DNA of 64,000 nt from Marsupella aquatica (lineage: Eukaryota > Plantae > Marchantiophyta): the NCBI GenBank assembly GCA_973895155.1, contig OZ316893.1, positions 4,012,490 to 4,076,489 of the forward strand, read 5' to 3'. Positions 20,601 through 43,312 of this stretch are shown here, piece after piece (position 1 is the stretch's first letter; every line of letters starts with the position of its first letter). Below the pieces are notes generated by a model, which was not told the DNA's origin, made no database searches, and worked only from the letters and a program-made list of their open reading frames with translations. Made by a program: the position numbers and the translations under genes.

Positions 20601-22040
20601 TTAGGGAATTGCTCAAGCTCTTTTCTCTTTCGTTGGAATGACCACGGTGAATCAAGCGGCCAAGTTTTGGGGTTGTTTGCTTGAAGAAGCACGGCAGCTC
20701 ATACCGACTTACGAAGACGTTGAGCCGGAACGAGCAGCAAGGGAACGGGCGGAGCTCGCACGGTTAGGGGGAATTCATAAGACGGCTTTTGCAGGAACAG
20801 AAGAAGTCCTTGAGAAATTTTCATGGACTCCCACCAGTGCTGAGCTTGACGAATTGCTGATCCAATAGAATCGAGTCATTGGAATTTGGGAGGCAATTAA
20901 GAACGCTGGGCAGCCGGTGTGGGAGTTGAAAGGTCACACTTCAGCTTGGAGCAGGGAAGCCATTCTTGGAGAGTTCTCAGGAATGGAGGAGATGAAGCGA
21001 AAGGGTAGTTCGGCATCTGCAACACCAGCTAAGCGGAACCGGTCGGAGAGGCAGGCTAAGGCTGAATCCATGCCAGTTCGTGATAGGGCAGTAGAGGATA
21101 GGTTTATGGCGGGTTGGGCGGATAGGCTACCTGCCGACTTACAACTACAGTTTGCACGAGAAGAAGATGAGCCTGTCTTCTGTGCTATGCAGGATAACAA
21201 GTATTTGGGATACATGAACAACACTGGCTTAGAGGGATTCATCCGATTACCATGGCGGTTAAAAGAGATACCAGATGAGGATCTGTTGGACTTCGTGGGA
21301 TGCTGGGAGGCTTCTTCCAACACGACGCTGCTGTATGGAAAGGTGTTCAAACTAACACCTGCGCTTATCAAAGCCGTCTTCGCTTTACCAACAGGAAGGA
21401 AGACTAAGGTGGAGCAGAGGAAGACGTTGGCGGATGACCAGTTCAGGTCATTTCCAGGGCCTTCCACCAAGAATGGGTTCTTCAGGAATCAATGTACAAA
21501 TCCGCATATAGGGCAGTTGATTGATTTCCTGAGAGTCACGTTGCATTGTACTTTGCCGAGAGCAGAAATCGGCAAAGCCCAGGTATTTTTGGTGGAGAAT
21601 ATCAATTCAAGCCGAGACTACAACGACTATCTCTTAATGCAGTTGAAAAAGGCATTGAATGAAGAAAAGCAGAGCATTGGGGAAGGAGCGGTGTCTAGAC
21701 TAGGGTACCATCTGCAATTACTTTGCCGATATGCAAGAAGCCAGTCTTTTGCACCAGTGTTACCAATACAGGAGCGGATGCCGATCACTGCACCACTTGA
21801 GGAGGTGGCGGAGGACAAGCAACCCTGAACAAGCGACGGCTAGAGAAGAGGTCGGCAATACAGGCAGTCCAGGGACAGGAGAATTCCCCTCTCAAGAAAC
21901 CAGAGGTGGTAACATATGACGTGGTGAGAAATCCGCTGCGATGGCCTACTTGTAATAACCCATATGCAAGTATTCAACTGGCAGAGAGGAAGATGACTGC
22001 CAAAGAAAGAAAGAAATGAGATGAGCAAATGGATTCAGAC

Positions 22041-22680
22041 CACTAGTAGAAACCGGGGTGTTTTATGACTAAGTTTTATGACTGCCCATGACTCCTTGTG
22101 ACTAAAGTTTGGGGGTATCAAGCCAGTCATAATTTTGACATAGCGTCTTATTTAAAGTGACTGAAATCGAGTGGTCAGCTATGTGACTAGGGTTTAAGAC
22201 ACATTTTGTGACTAATAACGACCAAATCTGTACTTGGGCATTTTGGGATTTGGAGAAGGTGTAGTCTTACAAATGACTGCAAAGTAGTCATTTGTATGAC
22301 TCAAAATGAGGTATGAATTAGTCACAAACAGTCAGTGAGGAAGAGTTTCCTTTCGCATATATGACTGGTGCTATGGTTCAATAATGGAACACAGGCGACT
22401 GATTATGACTAGTTGGTCTTAAAAGTTTAGAGTGTATGGGCACATTAGTGACAGATGATGACTACAAATGACCAATCATCCTGAAAAATCTTAAGATTGG
22501 GCTAGACTGGTTGGTCTTATTGGGGACCACGATGTAATATATCACGGTCATATCTTAATGACCCAAAATGACTCATTAGTCTAGTTCACGACTGCATTCT
22601 TTGACCCTTTTGGTCAAAATTTAGACTCGACCTAAGGCAATTGCAGCCTGCACATAGCACTAGAAACATGACTAATAGTC
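22041..22680. repeat. CACTA left subterminal TGAC(T/C) motif array
   Basis: Many ATGACT/GTGACT/AGTCA motifs in both orientations; mirrored at ~37640-37900. Typical of TnpA-binding subterminal repeats. Confidence 0.8.
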
Positions 22681-22935
22681 AACTCAAGCATACAAACATA
22701 CATTCAAGCACTCAAGCATACAAATACACAAGTCTTACATGAAAACATGAGAGACAACATAGTTCTATTCGAATCTTAGAACTCATATTAACTATTGAAC
22801 ATACATGCATAATTTCATACAAACTGTGGATGATCCAGTGAATGGTCCAGTGAATCTCAATTCAACTCTGCATTATGAAATATCTAGGTAACATTTGGCA
22901 CCAATCATGCAGTTGTTTCTAAGTTTAGGCTAAAA

Positions 22936-25900
22936 CTACAAACCACACATTTCAGGTGTCCCTATGTAATCTGTTGGCCACAACACCACAGAGTTCAGAG
23001 CATCTGCAATAATTGTCTGTGGCGGGTCATCATTCAAATTAGGAACTGGTAAAGGGGTCTTTGGCTTCACAAGCTTTGTCAACAACACTACATAATACCC
23101 TGTTGGTACTTCTTTGCAATGAAATGTAATCTGCTCAGGGCGCAATTTTCCATACCCTACACACAACTCATTTTGCTGTGGTGAGAACAATACATACTCA
23201 GGATGTGCCTGAGTTTTCAATTCTGCATCAGCTTTACGCTTCTTTGCCGCTGCCACTCTACCACTTGCCCTGGCCCGACTCTTCACCTTCCGAATAGGTC
23301 TCCCAGCAGCTGAAAGCTCTACTTCTACTCCACCGTCTGTGGTCACACCCTGTATGTGATGGAATTTGGGTCTCCACCTGGCCCTCCGTTTCGCATCCAT
23401 TCTCACCGGCTTTGGCAACTTCTATGAACTCTTCATATGAATCCAAACTGGGGGTATTCAGTACATTGGTAACCTCTGCAATAACAAAATAGCAAGTCAA
23501 CAGCCTATCAGCATTTTTGCCTTATCTCCAATCATGGAAACATATAACAAAACACATTTTTTGCCTCATCTCCAATCATGGAAACATGATGAGAAACCTC
23601 ACCTTCCATTGCTGGGGCCATGGTACCCTCCACATCCCTTTCTATGGGCTCCACCTCCATTTGCTGTTCAATGTTACCCTCTGGATTCATCAAATTGGAG
23701 TAATGTGGCAGGTCTCTAGAACCTCCATTCCATATTGCATTCATTATACATTTGTATTGGTCTTCTTGCACACGAATAAGCTTCTGAACATCTTCCTTTA
23801 AAGCAGTCAACTCACTTGCCATTTCACTCAATTTCACGGTCACATCATTCTCATGAGACTCCATACATTTCACACGATCTGATAAATTGCTAAGAGAACA
23901 TGATCCACCTCCCTGCAAACACATATGTCCAACAGAGTCAATCCATTACACCTGGTAAATAATATATGGTCCCATTGTTCATGCAAACTAGGGAATGTGG
24001 ACCTCAAAGAACACTATCTGGTATGAGTACTCACTTGGTTTGAAGGATCACTCTGGCCAGATTGTTGCTTCTGTTTTCTTGCTTCAGCTCTCACCTCTTC
24101 TTTTGTAGGGGACTGTCCATTTTGTGCCTTCTGCATACATCATATTTTCACACATTATTTGCTCGGACACAAAAAACTCAAGTACACTGTAGAAGCTAGG
24201 TCTGCCAATCCAACGATTATTCATACCAGCTGCTCTACTATCGGAGCATTCCCTTTCCTTCCTGTCAAGTTAAGGTTCTGAACGTTGCCACGTGCATATG
24301 CCATCTGGGAACTCTTACTCTTGCCGGATTCACTCAAGAAGTGATGGACTAGCTTGCTCCATTGAAGAGGATCTGTCAATGGGGGAGCAGGCATTCTTTG
24401 GTCCTCTCCACCTTCTTGAAACAATACGTGCAATCTCCACCTCTCATTCTTCAGAATTGTCTTCGCATGAGCCTGAAGACACTCCATGGCTACTCCATCC
24501 AGATGGCCCACATATTTCCATTTTGCGGCTACATTGTCAACAACTTGTTGCCAATCCGCTGGATGCTGCTGCACAAAATTCACCACACTCAAATCCAGCC
24601 ATCGCAATATTTCACCTTTCAAGTCAGCCAACCAACGATTCTTCCCTGCACATGCACTGTTCACCCAACGGTTGCTCCCAATGTCCACTACTCCTTTCTT
24701 GGTTCTGTCAGGTCCTGCATTGCTTTCTGTGGTACTACTTGGTGTGACAGGTTTAGGGTTCGCTGGAACTTTTGTACTACCCTTTAGTGGACTTCTAATG
24801 CCCCCTGCATCATCCCACATCCATGTGACATCATACAATGGTAACATCAATACCTTTGTATATGTCAAATAGTGGATACCAATTGCAATCTAACTTGCAA
24901 TGTGACCATCTTCACAGAATGCCCATCTCCAAGCCATGTGACCAACTTACCAGATGCTTTGCCGACACTCTGTGGATAAGAGGCAGGCTCAACTACCTGT
25001 ACATCTTCCCCACCAGCCAACCAATCAGGCTCTGGCCATTGCTCAGAACCATAGGCTACAGTTGTCCCTTGTCCTGCCTCTACTTCAGGTTCATAGTAAA
25101 CCTCCTTGTCAGTTACTCCCCAATCAGGATGGACAGAATCTGCAGTCACATAATTCAGCACTTTAATTAGGTCTTTAACATCACACTAGCATACCCTTTA
25201 TATATTTCCAAAGTAATTTACATAAATGCCAGAATTGAAGGGCAATCTCTACTCACATCTCCAATCGTCTCCTGTTGCTCCATACTGCTCAGTATGTTGT
25301 GTTGGTCTACCTTGGCCCCGTGTAATGTGTGGTGGTGGTGGACCCGTAACATACACAACAGTGTGCCCAGCATATGGTGGTGGCCCATACCCATCCACTT
25401 GTGGGGTTGCTCTCCCCTGAGAGGGTGCACAGTGTGTTGGTGGTGCGCCATACACCACAGTGTACCCCTCGCTGCGTGGGGTTGCTCTAACCTGACCTGC
25501 ACCTGTGCTGTGGGTATGTGTTGTTGCTCTACTTGCAAAGGAGGGTGGGATGTGCCCACCATGTGGTGCAGCTCCATACACAACAGTGTGACCACCTACA
25601 CCAACAGTTGTTGTTCCATACCCACTGCTCTGTTGGGTTTTACCTGGAGGTGGAGGTGGTATGTGCCCAGCACGCCCCATTGGTCCGGACCCACGTGCAA
25701 TGTAATGCACTGTGCTTTGCCCTCCATATGTTGTTGTACTGTGCCCACGGCCCATACCCCGAGCAGCAAGTCCACCTCTCTTAGCCTGCAAGAACATATG
25801 TGCAAGGACAATAAACCTAAAAGAAGTATCTTCCTTTGACTTGCCACACTCACATGAGCCAAACATATCACTACTGTGATACACTACTTCAACACTTCAT

Positions 25901-26210
25901 TACCACAATTTTGTTGGGCTCCACGACATTATGCTTGCCCTGCACATATTCTTCATCATCTGCATCGGGCTCCTCCTCTAGATAGTACTCTACATCATCA
26001 AATTCCTTATGGTTTTCACCGGACCCAACATCTTGCCCATCATCTGCAGAATCTGCCATCGATGGAATGTCCTTCACTGCTAGTCTCTCACTGTGTCGCC
26101 GAGGTCCACTTGCACTGTCACTGATGCTTTGCCTAACCCTTTTCTGCACTACACTTCTCCTGTCTGGGAGCCTGCATGCCATCCAAAAGCAACATCCATT
26201 GAACAACTCT
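22936..26210 (-). CDS. TnpA-like / ORF2 gene of the CACTA element (multi-exon, probably decayed)
   Basis: 24221-24868 has Ptta/En/Spm (Transposase_24)-like W..LV.HF.S...K.KS.QM..AR.N.....TGRKG. 22936-23418 has a Tnp1/En/Spm-like C-terminal domain (VGYGKL...FHCKEVPTGYYVVLL...LPVP...IADALNSVVLWP). TGCAG acceptors at ~25787, ~24131, ~23913 and ~23476. Confidence 0.75.
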
Positions 26211-26423
26211 AGTAAACATAGCTACATTCATTCCAATTAATGAGCAAAGTCTGGATAGGTTCTGTGGATGATAATTGTTCCCTTACAAAGCGGAAAATCC
26301 CTGTCTGAGCTCAGCTCCCAAAGCTGCCAGCCTCTCATCAACATATGCTGCACGTATCATGGCTTGCTTTTCAGACTCACTCATCTCATCATCATCTTCT
26401 TCCATCCTATTCAATGACAAACA

Positions 26424-29400
26424 TTATTGCATACGCATGGTGTCAGGCTCAGCCTCTACAAATGGCTCCTCACCCTCCCAAGCATCCACCCGTGTTAGAG
26501 GAACATACTCTGTGCTTGTCTGAACAGTACCAACGTCTCCAGTACGTGGTTGTTCAAATGCACTATGTCTATCTAAATGGAACTCTAGCTTTGACCCTTC
26601 TACCCTACGATTTCTGGGCTGCTTATGACACACTACCCTCCAACCTGGGTTCTCTTCCACATCCAAGAAGAAGGCCTGCTCCACCTGACTGGGATACACA
26701 AAAGGCTGCTCCCATTCGGGCAACTTGGACTTGAAATTGGCAAGCAGAAAGCCATCCCGGTCTCTTTTCATACTGGCCCTGTTACCACGCCACACTTGTC
26801 TTACCCATTCACCCTTCATCAAAATTACAGGAGTGGATGTGGCTCCATAGTCAAGAAGCCAGATATCACTTAGTTCTCCTACATACCCCATCTGCAACAC
26901 TCCTCTACTTTCATCAGGGCTCTCATGCTGAAATACACAAATGAGCCCGCAATCATATGTTACCCTGGAAGAAGTTGTTTCATCTCTCACTCTATAGTGA
27001 TTGCCATATGCTGCCATCCATTTGTAAGACTTTACCAGCAACCGTGGAGGATTGGACAGGAGATAGACATCTGCATCCATATTAGGATGGCTTGCATGAT
27101 GCTCTCGAACTGTGCATCTCAGCCATTCTGACATGCATGGGAATGTGGCAGACGTGCTTGATTGAATAGCCTTTTGTGCCTCGTACTCTCTACACATACA
27201 AGTGCATGGATTTAGCAATCAGAGTACACATTTTATACATGTCTGAAATTTAGAAACCAAGGGTAGCAAAGAAAATTGAAAACAAGTTACATACAGGGAG
27301 ACCAAAGTAGGTACTCACTCCAGCCAGGGTTGCAATTCATCAGTGTTTTCTAGAACGTACTGATGAGCCAAGTCTCTAATTTCGATGGTCAGCTTCACTG
27401 TGGTTGCAGCACCTTGTAGGACTTCCCCAGACACCCCTTCTTCTTCATCAGAATTCCATACTCGCCTTGTCACATGCTCGTAATCTGCTAGGTACTCTGT
27501 GATGTAGCCTAGAGTTTCATCTTTTATATAACCCCGAGCCATACTTGCCTCTGGCCTATAGTAAGATCACACATGACCCTTCATCAACTTCATGTACCGC
27601 TCCAGGGGGTACAACTAGCGTGCTGTCACCAGCCCGTACTGGTCTATTTCTTCCACGACATGGATGAGCAGATGAGTCATTACATCAAAGAATGCAGGCG
27701 GGAAATATATTTCAAGATCACACAACAATAGTGCCACATCTTTCTTCAATTGGGGAAACTGTACAGCATCCCACACCTTCACACAAACTCTGCGGAACAC
27801 ATCACTCAGACGCAATATAACTTTACGCACAGGCTCTTGCATGAGGCCCCTCAGGCACAATGGCAGGACTTGTTGCATCATGACATGGTAGTCATGGGTT
27901 TTCATTCTACCAAATTGGAATTTGTTATCCTTCACATGCCTCTTGAATGCACTAGCATAATCTGTAGGAGCTCGGAGTGAACTCAGCCTTGATAAGAAGG
28001 CCTGCCACTTTGTGTCTGTGCAACAATATGGTGCTTGGTACTTCAAAAACACATTTGCCCTGCTCTGGTGTGTTGTAAGCCAAAGGTGGGGTCGAATTCC
28101 CTTGTCCTGTAGATCCATACGTACAGAGCCCGTGTCCTTTTCTCCACTCAAAAATGGGAGTAGACTCTCGCATATGTTCTTCTCTATGTGCATAACATCA
28201 ATATTATGTTTGTTTGGATCAAACTCCTGCAACTCCAAAACATCAAGCAGTGAGCAAATCTCAATCTTCATAATACATACATACTACTTCATACAATCTA
28301 ACAACTAAATTGACTGAATCACATATATGGGTTGTTGGGGAGAGGAGATTACTCGCCAATACTCCAGCTGCAAGTCCAAAATGGACTATCGTTTCACACC
28401 ATACAACCTTGCAGGATCTCGTACTCCATCCTTTGCTCCTCCATCTGCATCATACTGTGCCTTGGCAGCCCCCCAAGAACTTATTTGCTCCTTCTTCACT
28501 CGAGGGGGGGACTGCGGAGCTCCGTGCGCTTGTTAAAATGTGCTATAAGATTGGGTCTACGTCTGTATGGGTGATCAAAGGGCAGAAATCGACGGTGACC
28601 AAGGTATTTGATACACTTCAAGGACTTTGAATAGTCACTTGTCACATGGGGGCCACATCTTGTGCAAGCTAAATATCCTTTCCCAACCTGGCCTGCAATC
28701 ATGCTATGGGCAGGGTAATCTGCAATAGTCAACATTACAATAGCTCTAAGCAAGAATGGATTGGCTTCACCAATCCTCTGCAGCATATCATATGTGAGCA
28801 CTCCAGTGTACCATAGCTTTCTCAGTTCCTCTACTAGAGGAGCAAGATAGACATCTATATTGGCTGCAACAGCACTGTCTGGCCCTGGAATCAACAATGC
28901 CAACATTACAAAGAACCGCTTTGTAGTCAACCATGGGGGAAGGTTGTAATTCAAAAGGGTTACAGGCCAACAAGAGTACGCATTGTTCTTCTCACCAAAT
29001 GGGTTCACCCCATCCAATGATAACCCGAGCCTAACATTCCTTGTCTCCCTAGCAAACTCAGGATACACATCATCAATCAACTTCCATTGCTTTGAATCTC
29101 CAGCATGGCGTTGTAGCCCATCTCGACTTTTGTTCTTAGCTGTCCATGTCATCAACTCTGATATGGCACGGCTCCTGAACATTCGCTGCAGTCTGGGAAT
29201 TATAGGAAAGTGACGGAGTACTTTTGCAGGTTGCTTGGACTTCCCATTGTTCCGGTACCTGTGCTTCCCGCATGTAGGGCATGTCAACTTCTTCTGATGT
29301 TCGTTTCTGAAAAGAACATGCCCATCAGGACAGACATGTATTGACTCATAGTTCAGCCCAAGTTTTGATATCAGTCTCTTTGCCTCGTACATGTTTTTGG

Positions 29401-30168
29401 CAGTAGATTACCTCCTGGTAGCACTATTTTCTGCAAGAAGGCCAGAACCTCGGACACAAAGATGTTTGGCACATTGTGGTTCCCACAAATATTCAGAAAC
29501 ATTAGCACAAATGCTAATTTGGAACACTTGCTTCCTGGGAACAGCGAATTGAAGGCCTCCTGAACTTCGGTTGGGGAGCCAAACATGGTGTCCTCTCCAG
29601 CTGTAGCCTGTTGCCCAATCTCAAACTCATCTGAAGACTCGTGGTCATCACCCGGTGCGGTCTCAAACTCTTCTGCATCTTCCATGTCCTCCCGCATTGC
29701 ATCCATATCCTGGAAAATATCCTGCACCATTTGCTGAACATTGATCCCTTCGTCTGCAGGCTGCTGAAGGACTTCAGACCCACCCAGTTGAGTCATCACA
29801 TCTGCCAACCCACCAGTGAAGAACTGGTCTCGCCTTGCACTATTTACATTCTCAAAGTCAGCCCTCCATTCCTCATCTAAAGAATCAGCCTCATTCGGAT
29901 CGTTTGTAACACGCCAACGAGGGTGTCTCCCATGAATTGCCAAGTGCCCATGAATCTGCCTCAAGACATTGGTGTGGGAGCCATTGCATTGAGTGCAAGG
30001 ACATCTCATTCGTGAACTTGGACCTGACCGTGCCACTTTGGCCTGTTCCCGATTCCAGAGCTTCTGGTCGTGTTGGGAAACCCTCATTGGATGATGTAGA
30101 GGCAACCTGGCAGATGTTGGATGGGTCCAAGGGGGAGGGTGACCTACGGACACTCTTCTAGACTCCAT
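26424..30168 (-). pseudogene. TnpD-type CACTA transposase (transposase-associated domain, Transposase_21, DUF4218, DUF4216), disabled
   Basis: CPC..C...H...HG; IHVCPDGHVLFR...CPTCG..RY; LRHFPIIPRLQRMF; RNVRLGLSLDGVNPFG; YSCWPV..NYNLPPW; IDVMHIEKNICES; MKTHDYHVMMQ; FPPAFFDVMTHLLIH; EQPFVYPSQVEQAFF. Frameshifts near 29380 and 28500; TGG>TAG at 27615 and CGA>TGA near 27566. Confidence 0.95.
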
Positions 30169-30555
30169 CTTAGAGTTCAGAACACAGGCACTCAGATTTA
30201 ATTATCATTTCATTATGAAAGTGGAAAATACATTTCTTGTTTAGTTGTGTTCCGATGTTCACACTATCTACCAAAACATATGACATGATACAGTGTAATA
30301 AATCATGCATAGACTTTCTACAACCACCAACAAAAACAAGAAAGGTTCCTGAATCGTGTACCTATTCTCAGGTCACACTGTAACAAAATTCCTAACTGTC
30401 TCAGGGTGTCACCTCCTTTGCTGTCCTCACTTATACTGCCTCAGTCTGCAATGGCCAACCAAGCACGTACATCCATGACCATATCAGAGTCCAATCACCT
30501 ATAGTCATAGACAAACGTGCCTGGTGTGAGAGCAGTATGAGATCTCCTCACATTA

Positions 30556-31158
30556 TTACCAGAGTTCATCTGGATACCCACCCTGTTCTCGATGGTAGTC
30601 ACACCTGAGGTACACTGGCATGTACATCAGGTCATCCAGGAGTATGCCCTGGGCATACCAGGGTGGGGTTCGATCTGTGCCTACAAGAAGTGGTTCTAAT
30701 GCCCTCCACTGGGGGGAGCTAGCTACCAAGTCCCTCCATTGTGTGCTAATTAGTCTATATTTGCAAATGTCTTGTGCGGTTGACCACTGAAGAATTCTGG
30801 GCCACACATCCGACAGCATTATATCATCTGGCAAACCAGGCAACAAGGAAGTCCCCACAACATTCTGCTCTTCAATTTCATCTGCTGAAAAATAAGATTC
30901 ATCGTCTCTTGCATCCTCAGGCGGTGTTGAAATATGTTTCAACACCAACCCATGCAGGAGAGTCCAAACAGTGGCCAGCCATGTGGCAACCCGGAGGAGG
31001 AGCCTACATAGCGCCTGTTGATGTAGGAAAGGCAACATACCCACCAAAGTCTGCCGCCAAGATTTGAGCCCACCCAGTAAGTTTACAGTGACACCCCCAG
31101 GCCCAGCAAGAAACCACAATCTGCCAACAGTAAAATAAGTCCAACTGCGACCAACCAT
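30556..31158 (-). CDS. CACTA cargo: F-box domain protein (200 aa)
   Basis: LLPGLPDDIMLSDVWPRI...DICKYRLISTQWRDLVASSPQW fits the F-box consensus (LP.LP.D...I..RL......VCK.W..L); hydrophobic N-terminus; AACGTAG acceptor 6 nt before the ATG. Confidence 0.75.
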   Translation of the reverse strand: MVGRSWTYFTVGRLWFLAGPGGVTVNLLGGLKSWRQTLVGMLPFLHQQALCRLLLRVATWLATVWTLLHGLVLKHISTPPEDARDDESYFSADEIEEQNVVGTSLLPGLPDDIMLSDVWPRILQWSTAQDICKYRLISTQWRDLVASSPQWRALEPLLVGTDRTPPWYAQGILLDDLMYMPVYLRCDYHREQGGYPDELW

Positions 31159-31249
31159 AACAAGCTACGTTAGTTCAAATATCACATTTATTTCAAAGAT
31201 GTGATTTGTACACAAAGCTTGTCTCAAAACTGATGCTACTACGTACTCC

Positions 31250-31663
31250 TCACTCTGATTCAGAATCGCTAATAACCTCTTCCTCACTTGTTGTCACATA
31301 GTTTTCACTGTGAGGATCCTGACCCTTCCGTGGCCAGGCCTCAAAAAGATCATAGTCCATTGGGTTTTGACGCTTCCCAGCTGCTACTGATTCCACAAGC
31401 CAAGCATATGAAACCACAAACACATTATGGGACATGACATAAAAGCGAATGTCACCCTTCCCAAACTTGCGGCAGGCTTTGGGATATGACTTAGTAATGA
31501 CATGAGTGGTGTCCTCTGTTATATTCTCCTCCACTGTCCCACCTAGGTCAAGCACTGTGGACTTGTACACTTTGCACTTAACCTCTCCAATTCCCGCCTC
31601 CACAAAAACCATGCTCAGCCCTTTCAGAATGGGGGTTGGTTGCTTCATCTCCTCAGCCAACAT
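31250..31663 (-). CDS. CACTA cargo: BRCT domain protein 2 (plant Pol-lambda-like BRCT)
   Basis: LKGLSMVFV...LGGTVEENITEDTTHVI...VVSYAWLVESVAAGKRQNPMDYDL shows the BRCT hallmarks (GG, THVI, W...S); acidic tail. Confidence 0.85.
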   Translation of the reverse strand: MLAEEMKQPTPILKGLSMVFVEAGIGEVKCKVYKSTVLDLGGTVEENITEDTTHVITKSYPKACRKFGKGDIRFYVMSHNVFVVSYAWLVESVAAGKRQNPMDYDLFEAWPRKGQDPHSENYVTTSEEEVISDSESE

Positions 31664-31668
31664 ACTCT

Positions 31669-32121
31669 TCAGCCTTCTTGAGTTTGTCCTTTGTTGAGTA
31701 CAGGTCCATATTGGACATCAGCAAGCCGTGCCTTTGCTTCCCAGACTTCTTGTTCAGCCCAAGCTGATGCAGTAGCTTCTTCATCCTCCCACAGTTCATA
31801 TTGCTCAGTATCCTGTACAATCTGATGTGCTATGGAATCTGTGATCCAAGAGGCCTCAACTACTTTTAGGCCTCGCTCAGTAATTGCAGAATTCATGTAG
31901 GACCATGACCATTTCTTTATCACTGATAGCCATGTCCCTGCAACAACATGTGTAGTCTCTGGAGTGATGTCCTGCACTACAGTGCCATGGAGCTCAGAGA
32001 ATCGTTTTTGTACAGTTGGCCAATGCACTTTGGTCAACCCATGCTGGCCATGGACCAAAATGGCTCTGACCCCTGTAAACACTGCTGGGTGGTCACACTT
32101 TCTACGTTTCCCAGGCTCCAT
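31669..32121 (-). CDS. CACTA cargo: BRCT domain protein 1
   Basis: FTGVRAILV...LHGTVVQDITPETTHVVA...KVVEASWITDSIAHQIVQDTEQYEL; N-terminal KRRK NLS-like motif; CACGTAG acceptor 11 nt before ATG 32121. Confidence 0.85.
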   Translation of the reverse strand: MEPGKRRKCDHPAVFTGVRAILVHGQHGLTKVHWPTVQKRFSELHGTVVQDITPETTHVVAGTWLSVIKKWSWSYMNSAITERGLKVVEASWITDSIAHQIVQDTEQYELWEDEEATASAWAEQEVWEAKARLADVQYGPVLNKGQTQEG

Positions 32122-32717
32122 GTACACACACCCTACGTGATCAGAGTGAATATTGGAAGAGTGGGTTCACCTGCCAATAGAAGGACACCAAAATTCCTGC
32201 TTTTTAAGTTGATCCGGTCCCCTGTTGCTCAAGTCCAATTTTGATAGGTACAAGGGATATGTGAACAATAAGTACTAGGCACCTGCACCGATGCAGGACA
32301 TTGTTTGAGTATATACCAGGAAATCCATATCAAAGGTGAAATGAAGTGTAACCAACTTGTCATGGCCGCACATACATATTTTGTTGTAAAGGAGGATACA
32401 TTCAATGACAAACTTATAGGGCAATTTGATTAATTGCATGCCTGATAATTTATATGCTTACAACTTTGAAGTCCTGTTTTAATTTAGCAGTCTGATGAGA
32501 GTGTTTGTGAAAATGACCACTCAGCCTAAATACTTCCAAGAAGGCTTGTTAGGATAAGTTTTTATAGGCATGTACCCAGCCACTGACGCTATAGCATAGG
32601 ATAAGTGCTGCCTATACAAACTTGCCTACCCAACTCCTTTTCAAAATTGGAATCTCTGCAATCCCCCAAAAATAGTACACCCACATCAGGTGCCCTGTGC
32701 ATGTACAATGTTCAGCT

Positions 32718-33398
32718 TCATAGCCAAGATATGTGATCTCTCACAGGAGTGCGCGAGGTAGGATCAATGGCATGGCGATGACAATAAAATATCCATCGAT
32801 CAACACCATGTGCAGAGTGATCATAGATTTCTCTGTCACAAGCATAACCCTCTGCTTGACGATCTTTCAAGCAATGATAGTGCCACATAGTGGGACACCT
32901 AGCATAGTGGACTATGTCAGCCCAGTACTCATCATCATGCTCACCACATGCCTTGCACCTATGAAGTGGGCAAGCTGTGGCATGAGCAGGCAAACACTCA
33001 AAACAGAAAAACCTCACACAAAAACGGTCTGGACATTTCCTAACATCCGGTGCAGCATCAACAGAGCCCTCATAGGACCCCAACTTCCCACACTGTGCAC
33101 ACTTAGCTTGCTTCTCCAAACAATCAGTGCACATCCAGTCTCCCTGGTGTGTTGACGGGAGGCCCACCCCTGGACAATTGTTTTCTGCAGCAAGGTGAGA
33201 CTCCGGGTTGAGGTGGAAATGCCTCATGCAAGGGCCCTCACAGATGACCAAGCTCCCACCATCGTCACAAATGGCACAACAATGAGCTGCCTTCTGGAAA
33301 ATCTGACTTGCAGAGAAGTTAGTAACGTGTGGCCCAGGTACACCTGTGTTGCTCACCTCTATCACATGCTTTTTCGCTGGAATTTTGGGGCGTGCCAT
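32718..33398 (-). CDS. CACTA cargo: stand-alone EDM2-type composite PHD-finger protein (226 aa from ATG 33398)
   Basis: CAICDDGGSLVICEGPCMRHFH...C.DC......C..CGKLGS...C....C.RFF...C...CPLHRCKAC...RCP..WH..CL...IFYCHRHAIDP...TPVRDHI parallels the EDM2 PHD region as I recall it (CAICDNGG..CCEG.C.RSFH; CPLHKC..C; CRRCPKSYH.KCL; IYC.EH.ID....TPVRDH). Confidence 0.9.
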   Translation of the reverse strand: MARPKIPAKKHVIEVSNTGVPGPHVTNFSASQIFQKAAHCCAICDDGGSLVICEGPCMRHFHLNPESHLAAENNCPGVGLPSTHQGDWMCTDCLEKQAKCAQCGKLGSYEGSVDAAPDVRKCPDRFCVRFFCFECLPAHATACPLHRCKACGEHDDEYWADIVHYARCPTMWHYHCLKDRQAEGYACDREIYDHSAHGVDRWIFYCHRHAIDPTSRTPVRDHISWL

Positions 33399-33805
33399 GC
33401 CTACGCATGAGACAGACAGTACAATTAAGTAGACAATCAAGTAGTGTGACGAGGCTATGATAGTGAGACAAATAAGTTTGAATACGTGACTGTATGGGAT
33501 GTTTGCAGGTTATGACATGGCCCATTAATTCTGTCATATAATGTTACAATGTTGGCCAAGTTAAAGCAGTCATTCAAGCAGTCTTTCATTGGAGAATTTA
33601 AAGAGAGCTTGCTTAATTCTTACATTAGGATATTCCACTTAGTGCAGCCAAATTAGGATAAGTTATATACTATGGATCCTAAACCCTGCACCCAAAATTG
33701 CTCAAACTTCAAAATTTTAAATAATTATCCGCGGTGCTTAAGTCAGAGCATTAAGTTATAGGTCATTGCACTCTGGTCTGTGCATACAGTGTGACAAGTG
33801 CTCCT

Positions 33806-34255
33806 CTACAGCGTGTCATCCAAACATGTGTAGACACCAAACGCACCGGTGGTGGGGTCTGGGAGGCCAGGACAAGTGACATCGCCAGGCACACTGCAGG
33901 ATGGCGAGTGGTTCCAGATGATACATTGTGCTCTATGCAAAACTCGACACCCAAGAGAATGGTCATCCAACTCTGGGCTAGAAGCCCGACAGGCAGGACA
34001 GTCATATTGGCAGCTGTGTACACACCCTTGGGCCCTAATTTGTGGCGGGTCATGTACAAGAGACAGAAATACCAAGGATGTTGGGAAGGGTAGAGAAGCA
34101 GGTACAGGCCGACTGTAGTTATTCCTGGCAACAATAGGGTACTCAAAGTACCATGCAGACTGGGCAGGAAGGATCCCAAGTCTCACATACTCAAGGCGCA
34201 ACCTCTCTGCCTTGCGTGCAAGCCGCACATGTTCAGCATTGCGGGTGCTCACCAT
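33806..34255 (-). CDS. CACTA cargo: unknown Cys/His-rich protein (149 aa, possibly prematurely terminated)
   Basis: ATG 2 nt after a CAACAG acceptor; basic N-terminus; CVHSCQYDCPAC...H..GC..H..QC...H..SC......C. The frame stays open for ~20 codons (RSTCHTVC...) after the TAG. Confidence 0.5.
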   Translation of the reverse strand: MVSTRNAEHVRLARKAERLRLEYVRLGILPAQSAWYFEYPIVARNNYSRPVPASLPFPTSLVFLSLVHDPPQIRAQGCVHSCQYDCPACRASSPELDDHSLGCRVLHRAQCIIWNHSPSCSVPGDVTCPGLPDPTTGAFGVYTCLDDTL

Positions 34256-37099
34256 AACTGTTGCTTTTGTTCAGATGTCTTGTGTTCACGTCCTCTGACG
34301 TCCTTTGATCAGCAAGGTGAGCGGGAGCTGTACTTGCCTCACCAACAACAACCAACCTGAACTTATCAGTTCCCACTCACTGTGTCATTCCCTTGATTCC
34401 AACTAGAGGTCATAGTATAAACTTAGCATGAAACACTCCTAATCAACAATGTTGCAAACTACAATATCTAGAAACACTGAAAGTCTCTGCCTGCAGTGAG
34501 CAACAGAGAGGTAGTTCACTGCTTGCAAGAGTGACTGAGCAGGAGTGTAGGCAGACTGGCATTCAGTTGGCACAACTATATTGTGCATCAGCACAAAAGC
34601 TCTTATAAACATGATATGCATGAAACTCATCGATAAAATAGAAGGAAACTAAACAGTGGATGCAAAACAAAGCAAATTACAGCACAGGTCGGCACAGGGC
34701 AAAATAGAGCAAAACAGAGCATGGATCGAGAAAATGAACAACATGTAGTTCTTACGCAAGAAACTCAGTGACAGCAAACAAATTCACTAGCCCCAGGGAG
34801 TGAAGCAAATGAGTACCAAGCCAACCAACTAAGATTGACTATGAAATGCAAGTGACATCATTTCAACCAAAAAAAACAATAAAGCACTTAGGCAACATTA
34901 ATATAGAAGTGTAGTGGAATTATATCATGCGACAGATCATACTTGGTTCTACCTGAGGTGTACAGGCATACTGCCCTCAGGTAGAATGTGTATGCCCGCA
35001 CATATACAAGAGGATCCCCAACAAAGCATACAACAATATGATCTGAATTCCCAATTACTCTGTTCTGTCTATACCTATGTTCATCAAAAAATGTTATGAG
35101 CAGACATTGAGAAGCTAGCAAAATAGAGGAGCCAATTGAAGCCAAAATATTACATTGCAGGTTGAATACATCAGTCACTGCCAAGAATCTATGCATGAAA
35201 CAAACATGAAGGTATCGAATATGTATATGCATTACAGACTTTCATGCTAGACAGTGGCCAAAGTTAAAATGAACTAGTTTTGACTTTATGACTCTCTGAA
35301 TGAAAATATTTTATTTCAGAATTATATTCTATTTCAGAATGGGTTCAACTCTGTGGATTGTGAACTGTCCCACTTGGAATTCCACTATTTGGGCTATCTA
35401 AGAATGCAGTTCAAAGGACATACAGTGCAAGACAGTTAGAGATCATGTCTTCATTCCGACGTCCAATTGGACATTTTATGTCACAAACTGCGCAAGCAAT
35501 GAAGTCCATGGAATTTTCTCAAAAATGCAGCTTCTGTTGTTGGTAAAAGCAACTATGAGTTTCCTATTGAGTGCCCCCAATGCACAATACTACCAGAGGC
35601 CCACTTTAGACAACGATGGCTGTCATTACTTATTGGGAACTCGGATGCATATATATTGAAATGCTTCGCAGAGTGTTCCGACCACAGGCAAACCTAACAT
35701 CAATCTCAACATTCAGTCCCGTCTCAGAATTGATTTAGAGGAGGCTTAGCATTCAGTACAGTGTCAACAATCAGACTTGTCTTCACATTCAACATCCGAT
35801 TGCAAGGGGCTTCGATGAAAGCACAAGACAGAGCTATAGAAGAAGAGACAGAGGAAGGCACCTGTGTGTTTGGGGAAAATGTGAAGCTCCAAAGACCACC
35901 CTAAACTGAAATCGCAGCGCGAAGTTGGCCGGTCGTAGGTTGATAAAAGCAAAGCATAGAGCCACTTGGACGTCTGCAATGTTGTGAACTTGCTCCTTTC
36001 CTCACACTGTGACTGATGTCGCAAGGCACAACAGTCCTATCAATCCCCACAGAATGTGGAATCTTTCCGTCGCAGTTGAGGTCCTATGCCTGATGACATG
36101 ATCAAGAATGAGTAGCTACAATGTCCAGTCTCTCTTGACAGGGTGACATAGCAGCAATACATACATTGGATCAAAGCACGAGTCGGAGAAAAACAATGAG
36201 AGATAAAAATGGACTTTCGCTCACCCATGTGTTGGATGGAAGAATGCAGCTACGAGGGCCGGTCTCCAGCTACAGCTCCTTGATGGCAAACCGCAGGCTC
36301 TTCCCGGTTCTTCAACCAAAAACTGACCCGAAACACACTCTTGCAATGTAATGAGTCAGTGGCAACAACTCCAATGTAGGTTGCAGCTGCCAATCCGTTC
36401 CCTCCGCCCTCCTTGCCAATGCCAACTCCCGACAGCAATGAGGCTTGTTCAGTTGACCTCCTTTGTAGGAGCTCCCAACTCCCAAAGGAAAACTGTCACT
36501 ACTCAGCTAAAAAACGGCCCCTGGACCTTGTCGCTGCCAATGTGCGTCGTGCGCTCAGTTCTCCTGCCCACCAAGAACTTCAACTATAACTTCAACTCCA
36601 ATGCCCAAGAAGATTGATGAGCTCCTTAGTCAAAGATGTAGCTGGAAGGGTATGCACACACTTACAGTTCACTAAGCTCCAATGCCCGGGACGATTGAGG
36701 AGCTGGTCCTGAGACTGGTCGCAGCTTGCACTCTTCACCTCAGGAATCCCGCGACGTTGTTTGAGCTCACAATACGCTTGGAAGAGAAGGATAGCTGCAG
36801 TAGACTTCACCCTAAGTCTTTACGCCTCCCACACAGGTCCCGCATTAGTAAAGCTTGTGCAGTGCCTTCCGCAGCAGTAGCAAAACTCCCGACGGACTCC
36901 CTCCTTCCGCAGCAGTAGTGATCACCTCCCTTGGCGCAACTACAAATGCGCTCTACTTGCAGCCCAAGGACTAAAATATCCTCAGCACGCAGCGATGGAA
37001 GGTTGGCAATGGGAGAAGTTACATACGGGACCCACACCACCACAATGAGCTCATAGTTTTACGAGGGAAAGTGAAGGAAATGCGCACCCTAGCCAGCCG

Positions 37100-37400
37100 C
37101 AAGGATGCACTTCCGCCTTTGTGTCTGCACCTTCTCCCGTCTCCCGATCAAACGAAGCTCAGACATGTGTGACTAAACGGGACGTGCGACTAAACGGGAC
37201 GCGGGAACGGAAAAGTTTCACCTGATGGTGGCAATCAACTCCATCCAATGGTGCGTGTCCCCCGATTAACCCCCTCCCCCTTGAGATCGATATAACCCCC
37301 ACGCCCATGTCATATAACCCCCCTAAACCCCCTTTAGGTGTCTTGGTAAAACCCCCCTAAAACCCCCTTTAGGTGTCTTGCTACAACCCCCCCTAAACTC
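37100..37400 (-). promoter_or_regulatory. Likely CACTA promoter / 5' leader region
   Basis: GC-richer block upstream of all minus-strand element genes, with short direct repeats (GACTAAACGGGACG x2; ACCCCCTTTAGGTGTCTTG x2). Function inferred from position only. Confidence 0.4.
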
Positions 37401-38306
37401 TGGCAGGATCGGTTACATGCATGTGGATGAGTTAGCTAGGCCTAAACTACACTTCATGTAACACAAAACCCCAAAAAAGCCTCCCTAGCAAACCCTTATG
37501 CCCCTTGCATATAGTTCAGTCAATGGCTATGTAAAGCGTAATCCCATGGCTCAGAATGTGTATGGGATCGGGTAAATATCCTTTAACCAAGCATATGGTA
37601 CTACATTATTTTAAAAAGTGTTCAATGGCCACAATGAAAATGAATGGACAAGTCAATTTTGTTGACTAAATTGGACTTGGCTTACTATTGGCCATTGTCT
37701 TATGTTGACTAAGTATGACTATGTAGTCAGACCTGAATGACTCATTCAATAGAGCAAGATTCTTAAAAAGTTCAATTGTCTTAAGTAGTCATATACATGA
37801 CTACTAATGACTATCAAGTCTTGTGGGGTCTCAAAAATAAGACTGATGTTCAAAGGTTGCACTTGCGTGGTCACCCCAGTCACAAGTGGTTTGGTCACGA
37901 AATGCCCCGGTTTCTACTAGTGGAGTCAGAAGATGGAAGCCAAGGCCGAAGTCCGGAGAGGCCAGTCCTTAGAGCTTATAACCGGGCCCAAATGGAGGAA
38001 CTGGTGGATGTAAATCAACCTGTGGCAGCCCAACAATACTCAGAGGAGGAGATTGGGGGCTTTGTAGAAGAGACCAGCATGCTCGGTAGTCAGGTTAATG
38101 TGGATGACTACGACGATGAAGCTGTCGATCATGGGGCGAGACCAGTGCCGGGAGTGAGAACGTTGGGAAGGTTTTGTAGAAGACTTCCCTCAGTCTTTTA
38201 ATACAAGCCGGAGGATCAGAAAACCCCAAAGTCTCATCCACCGGACGTGACACCATTGGAATTTGACTGAATGAAGGAAGCCGAGGCAGGTCTGAAGCTC
38301 GGGGGT

Positions 38307-38530: not shown

Positions 38531-41500
38531 GGGGGTCCAAGGCCTAAAAACGTCGTAGGTGATGGGGAGGTCCCCATGTAGTGAGACCCCCGAGGTCTGA
38601 AGGAGAAACTCGACGAGTTGAGGTCCCAAAATGACATGCAGGAACGGCAGCTACCAGGCGGTGATTGGCCGAAGGAAATAAGACAGCTTAGTGAGAAGCA
38701 GGCCGAACCTCTCACTGACTTCGATCAATTACAAGCAGAAGCCTGGGAGAAACGGCCTCGTTGGCAGATGCTGGTATCACCTGGCAGATCAAAATATGCC
38801 AGGGATCAGGCTAGGGAGTATGGAGACATGTGTGGACTACTAGCCTTAGAAATCTTCGGCAATGAGTTAGAATCCGGACCATTTCTTAGAAAGGAAATGG
38901 TAGACCAGACAAGGTTGGAGGAGGCAATGACGTTGGAACGATTAAAAAAAGAAGAGGTAATCGCTTGGCTTTGCTCCATGGAAGCCGAAGTTGCTAAGAC
39001 AAAGTCTGATCAACCAACTCAGCAGGATCTCTTGGCTAAGGAGCAGGAATTGGAAGTGGCGAACAACCAATTCAAAAACTACCAATTGGATAACCAGCAG
39101 ATCAAGGAAAAATTGATGAAGGTAGAGCTGGAGTTAGCCGATTCAAAAGCAAAAGTATAGGGTCTAAATCGCCAAGTCAAGAGGCTCAAAAAGACGGCTA
39201 AGGATCAAGCCACCCAGTGCAAGAAGGCCTTGGCAGAAGCCCAAAGGAAGTATGACAAGTTACTCGACAGGTTGGAGGCCATGCGTGAGAAGCATGATGA
39301 CGCCATTTGCACAGCCGCCAATGATCACCTAAGCCGAGTCCAACAGATACGCAAGGAGCTTCAGGAGGAGCTAGTGAGGACAAAGCAGGCATGGACGGAT
39401 GAGGTCACAAAGCTGGAAAGCATCAACAATTCCTAGAGAGCCGCTTTGGATAAGCAGGAGTTTGAGATTGTGCAGATCTTAAACGAGGAGCTCAAGACGG
39501 CCAAAGAGGAGGCGCACCGGCTTAATGAGGAGGTTGAGGATTTATCCCAAGAGCTGGAGGAGGCCAAAGACAAGATGATCGGCTTGTAGAGGCGTGCGGA
39601 TAATCAAACAGAGAAGTTGCGAAAGTATGCCAAAGCAGGGCACGGATCACCAACTGGACGGTCTCCTACTAGTGGCGTGGTCGCTGGGAATACTGAAGTG
39701 CCGAAGCTGACATCTATATTGTCAAGAGTAACCGGGGGTAGGGCAATGCAGTTGGTTGTGGATCTGGCCAAAACATTCATGGGGCCAGCAGGTACTTCTG
39801 GGGTACCTCTTAAAGCCACGCCAGAAGAGGTCAAGAGTATGGCCGCCCACATTTGTGGGACTGTTGCTACAAAGGCAGCCATGGTAGAGATAAGTAATGC
39901 CGATGAACTTGGAGCTGCGGTAACAGGTTCATACACCGGTACAGCCACCATGGACTACCAGAATGTAAAGCCGTGGAAACTCAATACAGAACGTATTGGA
40001 GAGCGGGCTTGGATTGAGGAAGTGAAGGCCAACGCTATCGAAGCCATTTTTCAATAGGATGCCAATGCCGCAGCCGATGCCGAGGCCGACAAACCAGAAC
40101 CCAAAGTCGAGGAGGCCGGAGGGATCAAGCCGGAGCCGATGGCAGGAGAAGGTGCAGAGTCCGAAGATTCGGACTTACCCCCGGTCATCTGACAATTAAG
40201 GAGGGCCAGTTATCGGTTGGAAGGAGGACGTGGCGGCAGGAGAAGGGCTTGGGCCAGAAAGGCGCGGCCGTTGTAGGATGGGACAGGGCAAGTATCGCCT
40301 TGTCGGCTTACGTAGTATTAGATACTCGGTTCCCACAAGGTTCCGGGCTAGTCAAGTTTTTTAGGTAATAGTTTTTTTGTTGGATTATCGCGGTGAAAGG
40401 CCGTGAGTTGTGGTTAGGATTCCGTTTTTTCCCTTGAACGCGCTGCAAGGATAAAAACCTGGGCAGCGTGGCTCAGGGGGCTTTTTCTTAGTCAAGACTC
40501 TAGTGTAAACATCAGTATGCTAGCATACAGCTCTTGGCTAAATCTAGACCGCGGATTATCAGTAAACCACAAAATTCCATTTCTGTGCAATTGTTTGAAT
40601 TGAGTTGGCCTTGTTGCCTAGTTCACAGATTCTTGCAATCATGGCGTTGTGTGTTGTGATACTTGTCGCTTGATCAATTTAAGTCAGTTAGAGCGATACT
40701 GTGAAGCTATACAATCGAATTGTCTTGATTGGAGACTGCCAAACCAAACTCTGAGAGAAAAGTGAGGATTGAGAGTGTTTCGTTGGTTAAAGTGTGGGTT
40801 GAGTCGGTCTGAGAAAAACCTTCAGCCAGCTTAAGAGATTAAGCCATAGAGGTACATTCCAGGGGCGGAATACAAACATACCCGACGAAGTCAATTGATA
40901 ATTAGGTGTCACAGCAATGCACAATTCACAAGCCCAGTGAAAGAATCGTTCCAGCATAGACTTGTGGATCGAGAGTTGATCGCGTTTCCAAGCCGAATGG
41001 TAGCCAAACCACCATAAGCCGACCATAAGTAGGGGTTTATAGCAGCAGGCGGATGGTTCTTGGGGTTAGAGGTGTTGGGAAACGCGCCACAACTTTACCT
41101 AAATTGGACTTCAACGGTAACTCAACACCAACCCCAAGGGGTGTCGGCGCGATATTGCCACTTCCTCCCACCAGCCCCTGTGGTAGAGTCACCACTCTCC
41201 AATCCTGACATTATTCCTTCACCCCCCCCCCCCCCCCTTGCCACCTCCTCTTCACATACTTTGCATGGAACCTGCCACCCCCCCGACTAGACTACTTGAG
41301 GGAATGGAGAACCAACCCTTTGGCTCTCTGGTTGGCTCTCCGGCCCTACCCATTTAAGCCTTCCATCCCCTGCCTTCACCTTGCAACCATTTGACAGCAG
41401 AGAATTTTGTGAATTATTGGACATTGCATTTGTTAATGCCCCTCCCTGATTTATGTAAAGTACAGCCAATTTCTACATGTATTTAGTAGGTATACTAATA

Positions 41501-42929
41501 AGTCAAACAGTGCCTTGACCATGATTTCCTATGAAAAGTAAGTATAAGAAGAGATGCTCCATGGGCATAGGGAGAATGTACATGAGAGCAGGCAATTGTA
41601 TATGGCTTGGTATATGGTTACCGGCGTACAAGATGAGGGGTAACAAAGAACGTCATTTATATGATGAAATAAACCTAAATAACCATTCGATAGCCGACAA
41701 ATGTATCTGGTTACCGGTGTGCTACGTGAGGAATTTAACACAGAGGGAGCCCCCCCCCCCCCAAATCCTCCTCCTTTTCAGTTTTGTTGCCTCTCGGGTG
41801 GTAACTTAGTTCTGAGAAAAGACTTGAAAAAATTTGTGTAAGAATATAAGAATTCCAGTAATACACACCCTAAACCTTAAAAAAATACAATAATAATTTA
41901 CTATTTTAACCCCTCAGTTTATGAATATTCTTGAAATATTCCCCAATTTGGTCATTTTCCTCCAAATTTTGTACTAAAAACCTCTATAGTTCTTATAGTT
42001 TTCAAACCGGGATTAAAACACCCCTCTTGTTCTCCAACAGCAATTTTAAAGTCTTTGGCGCAATTGAATAAAAAACCCTAACTTATTTGCTCACGATGGG
42101 TTGGAAGAAAAGAAATGAGGATCCTGCAAGAATAGGGATCCACATAGAAGTCTTATAAGTTATTGTGTGTTTGGTAAGGCTACTATTTTGGGAGACTTCA
42201 TCATCGTTTTGATGGGGCCCTTGTGATATTCACATAAGTGCGGCTTCATAGGACCAGCAGATACTCTCGCCACCATTATCTGTTTTGACAACAGAGTTTC
42301 ACCAGCAGCTTTTGGTAAAGTTACACTCTGCTCAAGATTGAGCAATCCATCATATTTCTATAGAAATCAATACCCATATTTAGTGGACCATTAGTGTTAA
42401 ATTATGATGTTTTCCTTCTTGACGATCCAATCATTACTCATTCCATGCACACGTAATCGACACAATCTCTACGTGGTTCACCTCTTCTCTAAGGCTACGT
42501 CCACACAACACTCAAGCTTTACTTCAAGAGTAGACGTACACACATGCCCTCCCTCTTCCTAAAGTTGCTCTGTTACAATGAGTAACACACCAGCGGCGTA
42601 CACTAGCCCCGGTATATACAAGGTCAGACATGACTAACCTAACCTCAGCTAAGACCCTAACTGTGGTTAGCTTAAGTGCCATAACCTTTGAGTCACAAGA
42701 CTAAGAGCAATCCTTAATAAACTCCCCCTTGACTCTAGTCTTGGGGACTGCAATTTCTGCTATCCATATGAGATACTCAACGGGAAATTCTAGACAATCA
42801 CCTAAAATCATAGGTGTCCCCCTAAAAACCATTTAAGGTTAACTAAGGGTTAATAAACTAGAATTAAGCCGTAGCCATAACAAGATTGAGTAACCCGTAT
42901 ATAGAAATTACATATTGATAAGTTACTCT

Positions 42930-43056
42930 ACTAGTGCTGCAAATGCAAAACTTGCAAAGTAGCATGGTGTTTTGAGTAACTCTCCAAAGGAATCAATTTG
43001 GTAAAAGCATCAACTGGGTTGAGTTTTCCATCAATCTTGACTAGCTCAAACAGCCG
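42930..43056 (-). pseudogene. Copia RNase H C-terminal remnant
   Basis: RLFELVKIDGKLNPVDAFTKLIPLESY...LQVL* resembles the Copia pol end motif (VKI.T..NPAD.FTK.L). Confidence 0.75.
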
Positions 43057-43281
43057 GGAGCATAATGGCCCCGACTCTAAGCAACCCACTCTCGGTTCGC
43101 CCCACTGATGGTCAAGGGGCCAAGCACCCTTGGAACTAAACCTCCACGCCTACTTGGCCTTGCCTCCTGAATGCAAGCTCCCTTGGGAGACTGAACGCGG
43201 CTTGGCTGCTATTTTGGCAGGATTTGGCAAGCAGGAGAGCTAACACCCGCAAACCTCAAGAACCCATGGCACCCCCAGACC

Positions 43282-43312
43282 TAGGGTTTAGGGTTTAGGG
43301 TTTAGGGTTTAG
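43282..43312 (+). repeat. Interstitial plant telomeric repeat (TTTAGGG)~4
   Basis: TAGGGTTTAGGGTTTAGGGTTTAGGGTTTAG. Confidence 0.9.

Follow-up and report, generated by a model that had tools for sequence, protein, structure and literature searches.

It is known that plant CACTA/EnSpm transposons carry TnpD, TnpA and extra domains such as Peptidase_C48/Ulp1 and Transposase_24, as described in PMC8978399, and that their products come from alternative splicing or from tandem genes; according to PMC13547354, Arabidopsis EN/SPM3 and 7, like maize Spm, generate them by alternative splicing of one gene. Element-encoded accessories proposed to act against silencing, built in part from captured host domains, are VANC and KIU (a Ulp1-bearing VANC) of VANDAL and TnpA of Spm; these are sequence-specific and were shown to cause hypomethylation (PMC13317346; bioRxiv 10.64898/2026.08.24.746577). 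In fungi, complete DNA transposons including EnSpm carry a host-type epigenetic gene, the TET/JBP dioxygenase, as reported in PMC12730594. Here, a stretch of 64,000 nucleotides from Marsupella aquatica (Marchantiophyta; contig OZ316893.1, positions 4,012,490 to 4,076,489), referred to as the window, was analysed. It contains a decayed CACTA element in which open reading frames (ORFs) for an EDM2-type PHD protein, a tandem-BRCT protein and an F-box protein lie upstream of TnpD.

The element shares with known CACTA/EnSpm elements the terminal inverted repeats (TIRs), the 3-bp target-site duplication, the subterminal repeats and the order of the TnpD domains. The extras of the known elements are domains in ORF2, whereas here they are separate ORFs, for which splicing is proposed. 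Compared with VANC, KIU and TnpA, the cargo seems to be a histone-reader-type module with a function predicted from sequence; no homology to these factors was detected in a Pfam comparison, where the cargo matched PHD, BRCT and F-box families only. TET/JBP is an enzyme acting on 5-methylcytosine, and it moved between carriers, with shared stretches whose borders bear no terminal signature (PMC12730594); the present cargo consists of three non-enzymatic interaction modules in a plant, and its movement is only hinted at. Pack-CACTA elements also have host-type coding DNA between CACTA TIRs, as outlined in PMC13317346, but no transposase. In the present element the transposase is full-length though broken, and the cargo genes are whole, diverged and constrained, not recent fragments. 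The words PHD and F-box are absent from the main text of PMC8978399 and PMC13547354, and BRCT is absent from that of PMC13547354. No description of a PHD/BRCT/F-box cassette in a CACTA element was found in the literature; supplements, Repbase entries and subscription papers might contain one. The novelty would lie in the combination of three likely maintained accessory genes, as accessory cargo of transposons as such is already known.

The picture that we propose is that of a dead CACTA copy with a three-gene module of approximately 4 kb, which was captured in ancient times, kept by selection and spliced from a leader, and which would supply chromatin and repair accessories. We regard this picture as a whole as evenly balanced between right and wrong. 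The narrower statement that the cargo genes are selected accessory genes is probable.

The 18-nt TIR has exactly two matches in the window, at 22041 on the plus strand and at 37905-37922 on the minus strand (chance expectation 0.02), and both TIRs begin with CACTA, as is characteristic of CACTA/EnSpm. In contigs of three of the four public runs, empty-site joints run from one flank directly to the other, omitting 15,885 nt. This length equals the element plus 3 bp, as expected for the target-site duplication of this class. The triplets flanking the present copy are GAC and GAG, one base apart. The subterminal motif TGAC(T/C), which was picked by eye, occurs 12 times in 402 nt at the 5' end and 25 times in 700 nt at the 3' end, against 47 times in 10 kb of the interior. 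This corresponds to 30-36 motifs per kb in the terminal parts, compared with 4.7 per kb between them. The TnpD domains are on the minus strand in the usual CACTA order; Transposase_21 gave an E value of 1.7e-66 in Pfam, DUF4218 was above the gathering threshold, and Transpos_assoc and DUF4216 were below it. The element is a genuine CACTA transposon, as had been predicted, inserted into another high-copy repeat. The cargo ORFs were also correctly placed by the original prediction: all of them are on the minus strand, between the TIR at 37922 and TnpD. The ORFs of the putative TnpA region are at the expected place and presumably resemble TnpA; they have no family match in Pfam or NCBIfam. The features are collected in the table.

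Table. Features of the CACTA element and its cargo (positions in the window)
Feature	Position	Strand	Basis
Whole CACTA/EnSpm element, 15,882 bp, decayed copy	22041..37922	-	TIR pair, empty-site joints, flanking triplets
5' (promoter-side) TIR, TGAC(T/C) subterminal repeats inward	37905..37922	-	exact TIR match, motif count
Presumed leader region with donor-like sites 37223, 36225, 34381, 34343, 34253	34253..37223	-	pattern scan, inference
Cys/His-rich ORF, 149 amino acids, unsupported as gene	33806..34255	-	no family, relative, fold or acceptor signature
Stand-alone EDM2-type PHD cassette protein, 226 amino acids	32718..33398	-	CGTAG 2 nt before ATG
Tandem-BRCT gene, 290 amino acids, split by 1-nt deletion near 31682	31250..32121	-	CGTAG 11 nt before ATG
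F-box ORF, 200 amino acids	30556..31158	-	Pfam; acceptor-like CGTAG 6 nt before ATG
TnpD transposase: Transpos_assoc, Transposase_21, DUF4218, DUF4216	26424..30168	-	Pfam, ORFs
Probable multi-exon TnpA-like gene	22936..26182	-	ORFs; position and presumed resemblance
3' TIR and subterminal repeats	22041..22058	+	exact TIR match, motif count

The PHD protein gives the strongest evidence for a maintained cargo gene. Pfam detected PHDs of the NSD/EDM2 type (best E value 1e-5, below gathering), and the best matches in the PDB were NSD2 and NSD3. The PHD cassette is shared with plant EDM2 (PMC7529245) and with NSD-type proteins. However, the stand-alone proteins are of approximately 220 residues, are devoid of the methyltransferase-like, acidic and proline-rich regions, and form a long-branched clade of their own. 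Identity to grass-type EDM2 proteins was 25-32% over long matches (loci L001-L006 and L008), in agreement with the earlier statement that the cargo is strongly diverged from host-type sequences. In a first search, 38 candidates yielded five stand-alone proteins, 217-245 residues long, with coverage of 97-100% and identity of 38-84%. A profile search gave 547 matches, the best 150 of which were more short members followed by full-length EDM2. In a quick tree of 152 rows, from which three fragments had been dropped for low coverage, 18 short proteins were set apart at an SH-aLRT value of 95. A careful tree was then built from 42 rows that the author had selected; in it, all 12 chosen stand-alone rows were on one side of a branch with support of 100/99 and a length of about 1.1. 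It should be mentioned that the profile was built from the stand-alone proteins and that long branches come together within the clade, which leaves the tree without a firm root. The EDM2-type tail motif is present in the window protein and in 7 of 12 stand-alone rows, 18 of 22 EDM2-like rows and none of 8 other rows, with group labels assigned partly by eye. The ORF stops at this motif, and so do the full-length relatives.

The zinc ligands are well conserved. Cys or His occupies at least 80% of the rows in 26 columns, and the window protein keeps 25 of them. Residue 165 is Tyr, where all 14 relatives have Cys: this is a private lesion of the present copy. Retention of Cys and Trp exceeded all 200 neutral simulations in each of seven PHD pairs; even in the pair at 84% identity, 26 of 26 were kept, against a neutral expectation of 21.6 +/- 1.8. 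The test by mean BLOSUM score was weaker (8, 0, 150, 8, 24, 1 and 1 of 200 in the seven pairs). Absence of stop codons in the relatives is not evidence, because the protein database contains open frames only. The formation of a separate clade and the retention of Cys and Trp beyond neutral expectation support the view that the PHD gene has been maintained and is not a recent neutral capture. This part of the original prediction seems to hold for PHD and, more weakly, for BRCT, with one intact relative and conservative changes. In addition, PHD was not nearly identical to any host gene found, as would be the case for a recent capture; this comparison covered the host proteins found, and the Marsupella genome itself lay outside it.

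The distribution of the relatives also bears on a neutral, Pack-type origin of the cargo. Under this explanation, the relatives would be ordinary small host genes of an under-annotated lineage, and the captured copies would be drifting. It would account for the lesions in PHD, BRCT and TnpD of this copy, and short EDM2-like PHDs are also present in grass-type contigs (L002-L008). However, there are at least 17 diverged relatives, many of them frame-broken and none with an annotated-genome accession. Such an accession was found for none of 19 stand-alone relatives and for all six long EDM2-like proteins (Marchantia, Riccia, Calypogeia and Diphasiastrum), and the frame is apparently lost part-way in 7 of 15 short members, as judged by eye. 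This pattern would fit repeat-borne genes. Constraint is visible already at 84% identity; furthermore, three unrelated genes have one acceptor-like motif, and depth is high in four runs, as described below. Neutral cargo is thus quite improbable in our judgement. A metagenome scan with the PHD alignment gave 12 loci from 221 pattern matches, all of them PHD genes, either of the EDM2 type or unrelated; the cassette was present at none of these loci. Short EDM2-type PHDs without the C-terminal domains are also found among seed-plant-type EDM2 (L002-L008, P0032, P0043, P0054, P0057 and P0135), outside the studied clade; EDM2 was apparently reduced to its PHD cassette on more than one occasion.

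The N-terminus of the PHD protein is MARPK (33384-33398, minus strand). An M[A/T]RxK start is present in 9 of 19 stand-alone relatives (P0001-P0172), in which the next 25 residues are barely alignable, and in none of 107 long proteins, 12 of which begin with MAR, including named liverwort EDM2-like ones. The tail of histone H3 starts with ARTK. It is possible that the MARPK start mimics the H3 tail, or it may simply be a basic localisation signal.

The BRCT region had been described as two genes, among five compact ORFs each with its own start. Five open frames do exist, but BRCT1 and BRCT2 are one gene, which leaves four ORFs. A search for longer relatives of BRCT1 gave one match among 797 candidates: P0006, an intact protein of 294 residues that spans both halves with 65% and 58% identity. 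One extra base at 31682 is present in contigs of all four runs, at 16-63% of the local depth. When the frame is read through with an X at this position, it is open for 290 residues, and 176 of 289 (61%) are identical to P0006. A separate BRCT2 gene was rejected on these grounds: P0006 covers both halves, and the extra base restores the frame. Pfam matched BRCT twice (E values 1e-5 and 4.5e-8), and the two repeats resemble each other (24%, E value 3e-11). Substitutions relative to P0006 were more conservative than neutral in the BLOSUM test (6 and 0 of 200). The predicted structure was unusable, with a pLDDT confidence score of 35. An origin of the BRCTs from Pol lambda, suggested by a presumed resemblance, is backed only by a TdT match with an E value of 0.06 and is not claimed. 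Viral-contig scans with PHD and BRCT gave nothing.

The F-box ORF consists of a moderately hydrophobic N-terminus, an acidic linker, the F-box (residues 109-152) and a short tail. The F-box motif was recognised by PF00646 with 22.5 bits against a cutoff of 20.5 (E value 1e-4). No substrate domain or second domain was recognised in searches of Pfam, NCBIfam and the Atlas; for the cargo as a whole, the Atlas searches gave nothing beyond the F-box and the NCBIfam scan gave no useful match. Among the contig variants near 31090-31104, the net difference in length is 3 nt, so that the frame is kept, and a variant near the 3' end retains Trp and the double stop, both as judged by eye. Five of eight differences in the cargo ORFs are silent, which is weak evidence (within 40 of 1,831 rows). 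The window also has an intronless F-box/Kelch-like host gene of 399 residues (52502-53701, minus strand), which is 33% identical to the F-box ORF over 64 residues; its observed/expected CpG ratio is 1.03, against 0.16-0.41 in the coding parts of the element.

Thus the PHD, BRCT (twice) and F-box domains of the original prediction were recovered by Pfam, but its Cys/His-rich protein lacks support as a gene. This ORF had no Pfam match below an E value of 0.12 and none in NCBIfam, no relative among 29 candidates of 81-261 residues, and no fold (the predicted structure, with pLDDT 37, was unusable). Atlas recognition was low (1831). Its ATG leads directly into the donor-like sequence GTGAG. The DNA of this ORF (33621-34221) was the deepest bin of the cassette in three of the four runs, and might act as a leader or have a regulatory role in the module.

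The starts of the other three cargo genes have a common feature. The nearest upstream AG is 2 nt (PHD), 11 nt (BRCT) and 6 nt (F-box) before the ATG, and AG-free zones of 52, 36 and 51 nt, respectively, lie ahead of it. In TnpD, AAG directly precedes the ATG, with an AG-free zone of 20; the zones are 4 for the Cys/His ORF and 0 for the internal ATG of BRCT2. CGTAG, a motif chosen after inspection, is the nearest AG within 11 nt at 3 of 454 sense ATGs, and these are the PHD, BRCT and F-box starts only. It recurs there though CpG is depleted in the coding parts of the element. A looser rule (YAG and a 30-nt AG-free zone), with criteria and thresholds also set after inspection, holds for 19 of 454 sense ATGs, with a value of approximately 3e-4 for three of the four starts. 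In two relatives, the conserved Met follows V-G or E-G, so that an AG could be present at the corresponding position. Because CGTAG precedes these three starts alone, the three cargo genes are likely to be spliced from a shared leader of the element.

This copy is dead and not autonomous: it has no intact transposase frame. TnpD is broken at four places, by frameshifts near 29395 and 28500 and by in-frame stops at 28386-28388 and 27615-27617. Both frameshifts are in single-base runs and are possibly assembly errors for this reason, and the base at 28388 is read differently in runs X2 and X3. The 1-nt deletion in BRCT and the loss of an invariant zinc ligand in PHD are further lesions. Joints at 22719-33872 (one of four runs) and 25577-36818 (three of four runs) point to internal-deletion derivatives of the element. 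The latter joint was considered as an intron and rejected, since it lacks GT..AG ends when read on the sense strand; it is read as a deletion derivative.

The cassette is not unique to this copy; the opposite would have refuted the original prediction. All four runs cover the whole element, and contigs of all four cover the cassette. The binned depth over 30616-34221 is far above that of the element ends and the TnpA region, and drops near 30460-30500 and between 34451 and 34654. Depth was compared per contig, because fragmented contigs inflate sums. In X2, mean depth was approximately 4,300-9,200 at six cassette sites and 370-840 in long element-specific contigs; in X5, the values were 27-32 and 5-7. 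The cassette contigs are thus about 5-25 times deeper than the element-specific ones, although contig depth is not copy number and is a hint only. Compared with the window, one cassette contig of X5 has 1 difference in 221 bases and another has 7 in 299. These differences in depth suggest that the cassette is not restricted to the present CACTA subfamily, and it is probably present in other, more abundant carriers. The simplest reading, again a hint, is that a more abundant sister family shares the module nearly unchanged and differs in its ends and transposase, a situation known from the TET/JBP genes of fungal transposons (PMC12730594).

The same excess of depth in X2 and X5, and its drops at the two borders, might indicate that the cassette is a separate high-copy mobile unit, i.e. 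a non-autonomous element or part of another transposon class, which was inserted into or recombined with an ancestor of the CACTA subfamily and serves another carrier or its own spread. However, no inverted or direct repeat of at least 10 nt joins the borders, and none of the 15 joints listed, out of 184, skips the cassette. The idea of a nested element was rejected, as no termini of such an element were found. A diverged TnpD contig (29288) is similarly over-deep (11,773 in X2 and 42 in X5), so that the deeper carrier may be a sister CACTA family. In addition, the cargo genes are co-oriented with TnpD, and the limit on reading depth as copy number applies here as well. We regard the separate unit as rather unlikely.

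If the cargo is selected, the following model can be considered. The PHD, BRCT and F-box genes would have been captured from host genes long ago and kept by selection in mobile elements, and each would be expressed from a single 5' promoter through alternative splicing, as are TnpA and TnpD in Spm. The miniature EDM2 might bind H3K9me2-marked chromatin over the element. According to PMC7529245, EDM2 is an H3K9me2-binding protein that represses the use of proximal poly(A) sites in heterochromatic introns. The transposase of the present element is 7-15 kb downstream of the promoter, behind three cargo genes, which would pose the same problem of read-through as in the EDM2 targets. The stripped EDM2 reader would be a mimic or competitor of host EDM2 that steers, or competes with, the host pathway and thereby influences whether the long transcript reads through to TnpD and TnpA. 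The BRCT pair might bind repair factors at excision or insertion sites, and the F-box might bind SKP1, as an adaptor or as a decoy. The predicted roles in anti-silencing, end joining and recruitment of SCF are inferred from the identity of the domains. Given selected cargo, a role in anti-silencing or read-through is a candidate with about an even chance.

Target-site choice is the main functional rival to this model. The cargo genes would be selected passengers with another use, such as tethering of integration by the PHD, camouflage, or effects through small interfering RNA. A chromatin reader with BRCTs would fit tethering of the transpososome equally well, and this copy sits within another high-copy repeat; a single insertion site is, however, uninformative on preference. 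The possibility that captured sequence acts as camouflage is considered in PMC13317346 and PMC8978399. Camouflage requires similarity to host genes at the DNA level, which PHD lacks with its protein identity of about 30%, and it leaves the conserved zinc ligands unexplained. These other uses are unlikely, taken together.

Several points weigh against the proposed picture of selected, leader-spliced accessory genes. The stand-alone PHD clade has no resolved sister and is not rooted in any EDM2 subgroup, and the PHD protein has lost the C-terminal methyltransferase-like (ELP) domain and all other EDM2 domains. By mean BLOSUM score, there was no sign of constraint for P0003 (150 of 200) and only a slight one for P0005 (24 of 200). 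The substitution tests use relatives picked by similarity and are not estimates of the ratio of non-synonymous to synonymous changes (dN/dS); at the protein level they covered PHD and BRCT, not the F-box. The PHD and BRCT relatives are known as protein sequences; their location in transposons, or next to BRCT and F-box genes, is presumed. Retention of Cys and Trp in the BRCTs was not significant (61 and 79 of 200). The BRCT matches in the PDB were weak and mixed (ligase IV at an E value of 9e-4, BRCA1, and the TdT match mentioned above); hence the end-joining role is only a guess. The choice of the acceptor motif and its rules after inspection belongs here as well.

A bolder version of the model can be drawn. 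The cargo would be an old, exchangeable three-gene counter-silencing module of plant DNA transposons, in which one leader is spliced to several acceptors as in a viral late unit. It would comprise a miniature EDM2 with an H3-mimicking MARxK N-terminus, a tandem BRCT that binds repair factors and an SKP1 decoy, would serve transcription and repair inside H3K9me2 heterochromatin, and would move between transposon families. In this full form the model is doubtful.

As for the surroundings, the CACTA element is directly flanked by a high-copy repeat. ORFs of this repeat are found at 20869-21828 and 38585-40057; the one that was scanned (38636-39160) had no Pfam match. Outer inverted repeats enclose the element at 20194-20223 and 41485-41514 (30 nt at 97%), and a second pair is at 12549-12654 and 41974-42078 (77 and 35 nt at 75-83%). 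These pairs suggest nested TIR elements. A short Copia-type element is present at 42395-47327, with direct repeats that are 91-93% identical and about 4.6 kb apart, and a gag ORF at 43952-44629.

The known anti-silencing factors of plant transposons, VANC and TnpA, are sequence-specific DNA binders. If the proposed model is true, the present element would follow another strategy: a miniature host heterochromatin reader, kept by selection, would target the EDM2 pathway, by which transcripts pass through H3K9me2 regions. The cargo consists of small proteins, so the model can be tested by histone-peptide binding, SKP1 binding and the use of poly(A) sites. Annotated proteomes do not show the stand-alone PHD clade; such cargo may therefore be widespread, masked as repeat.

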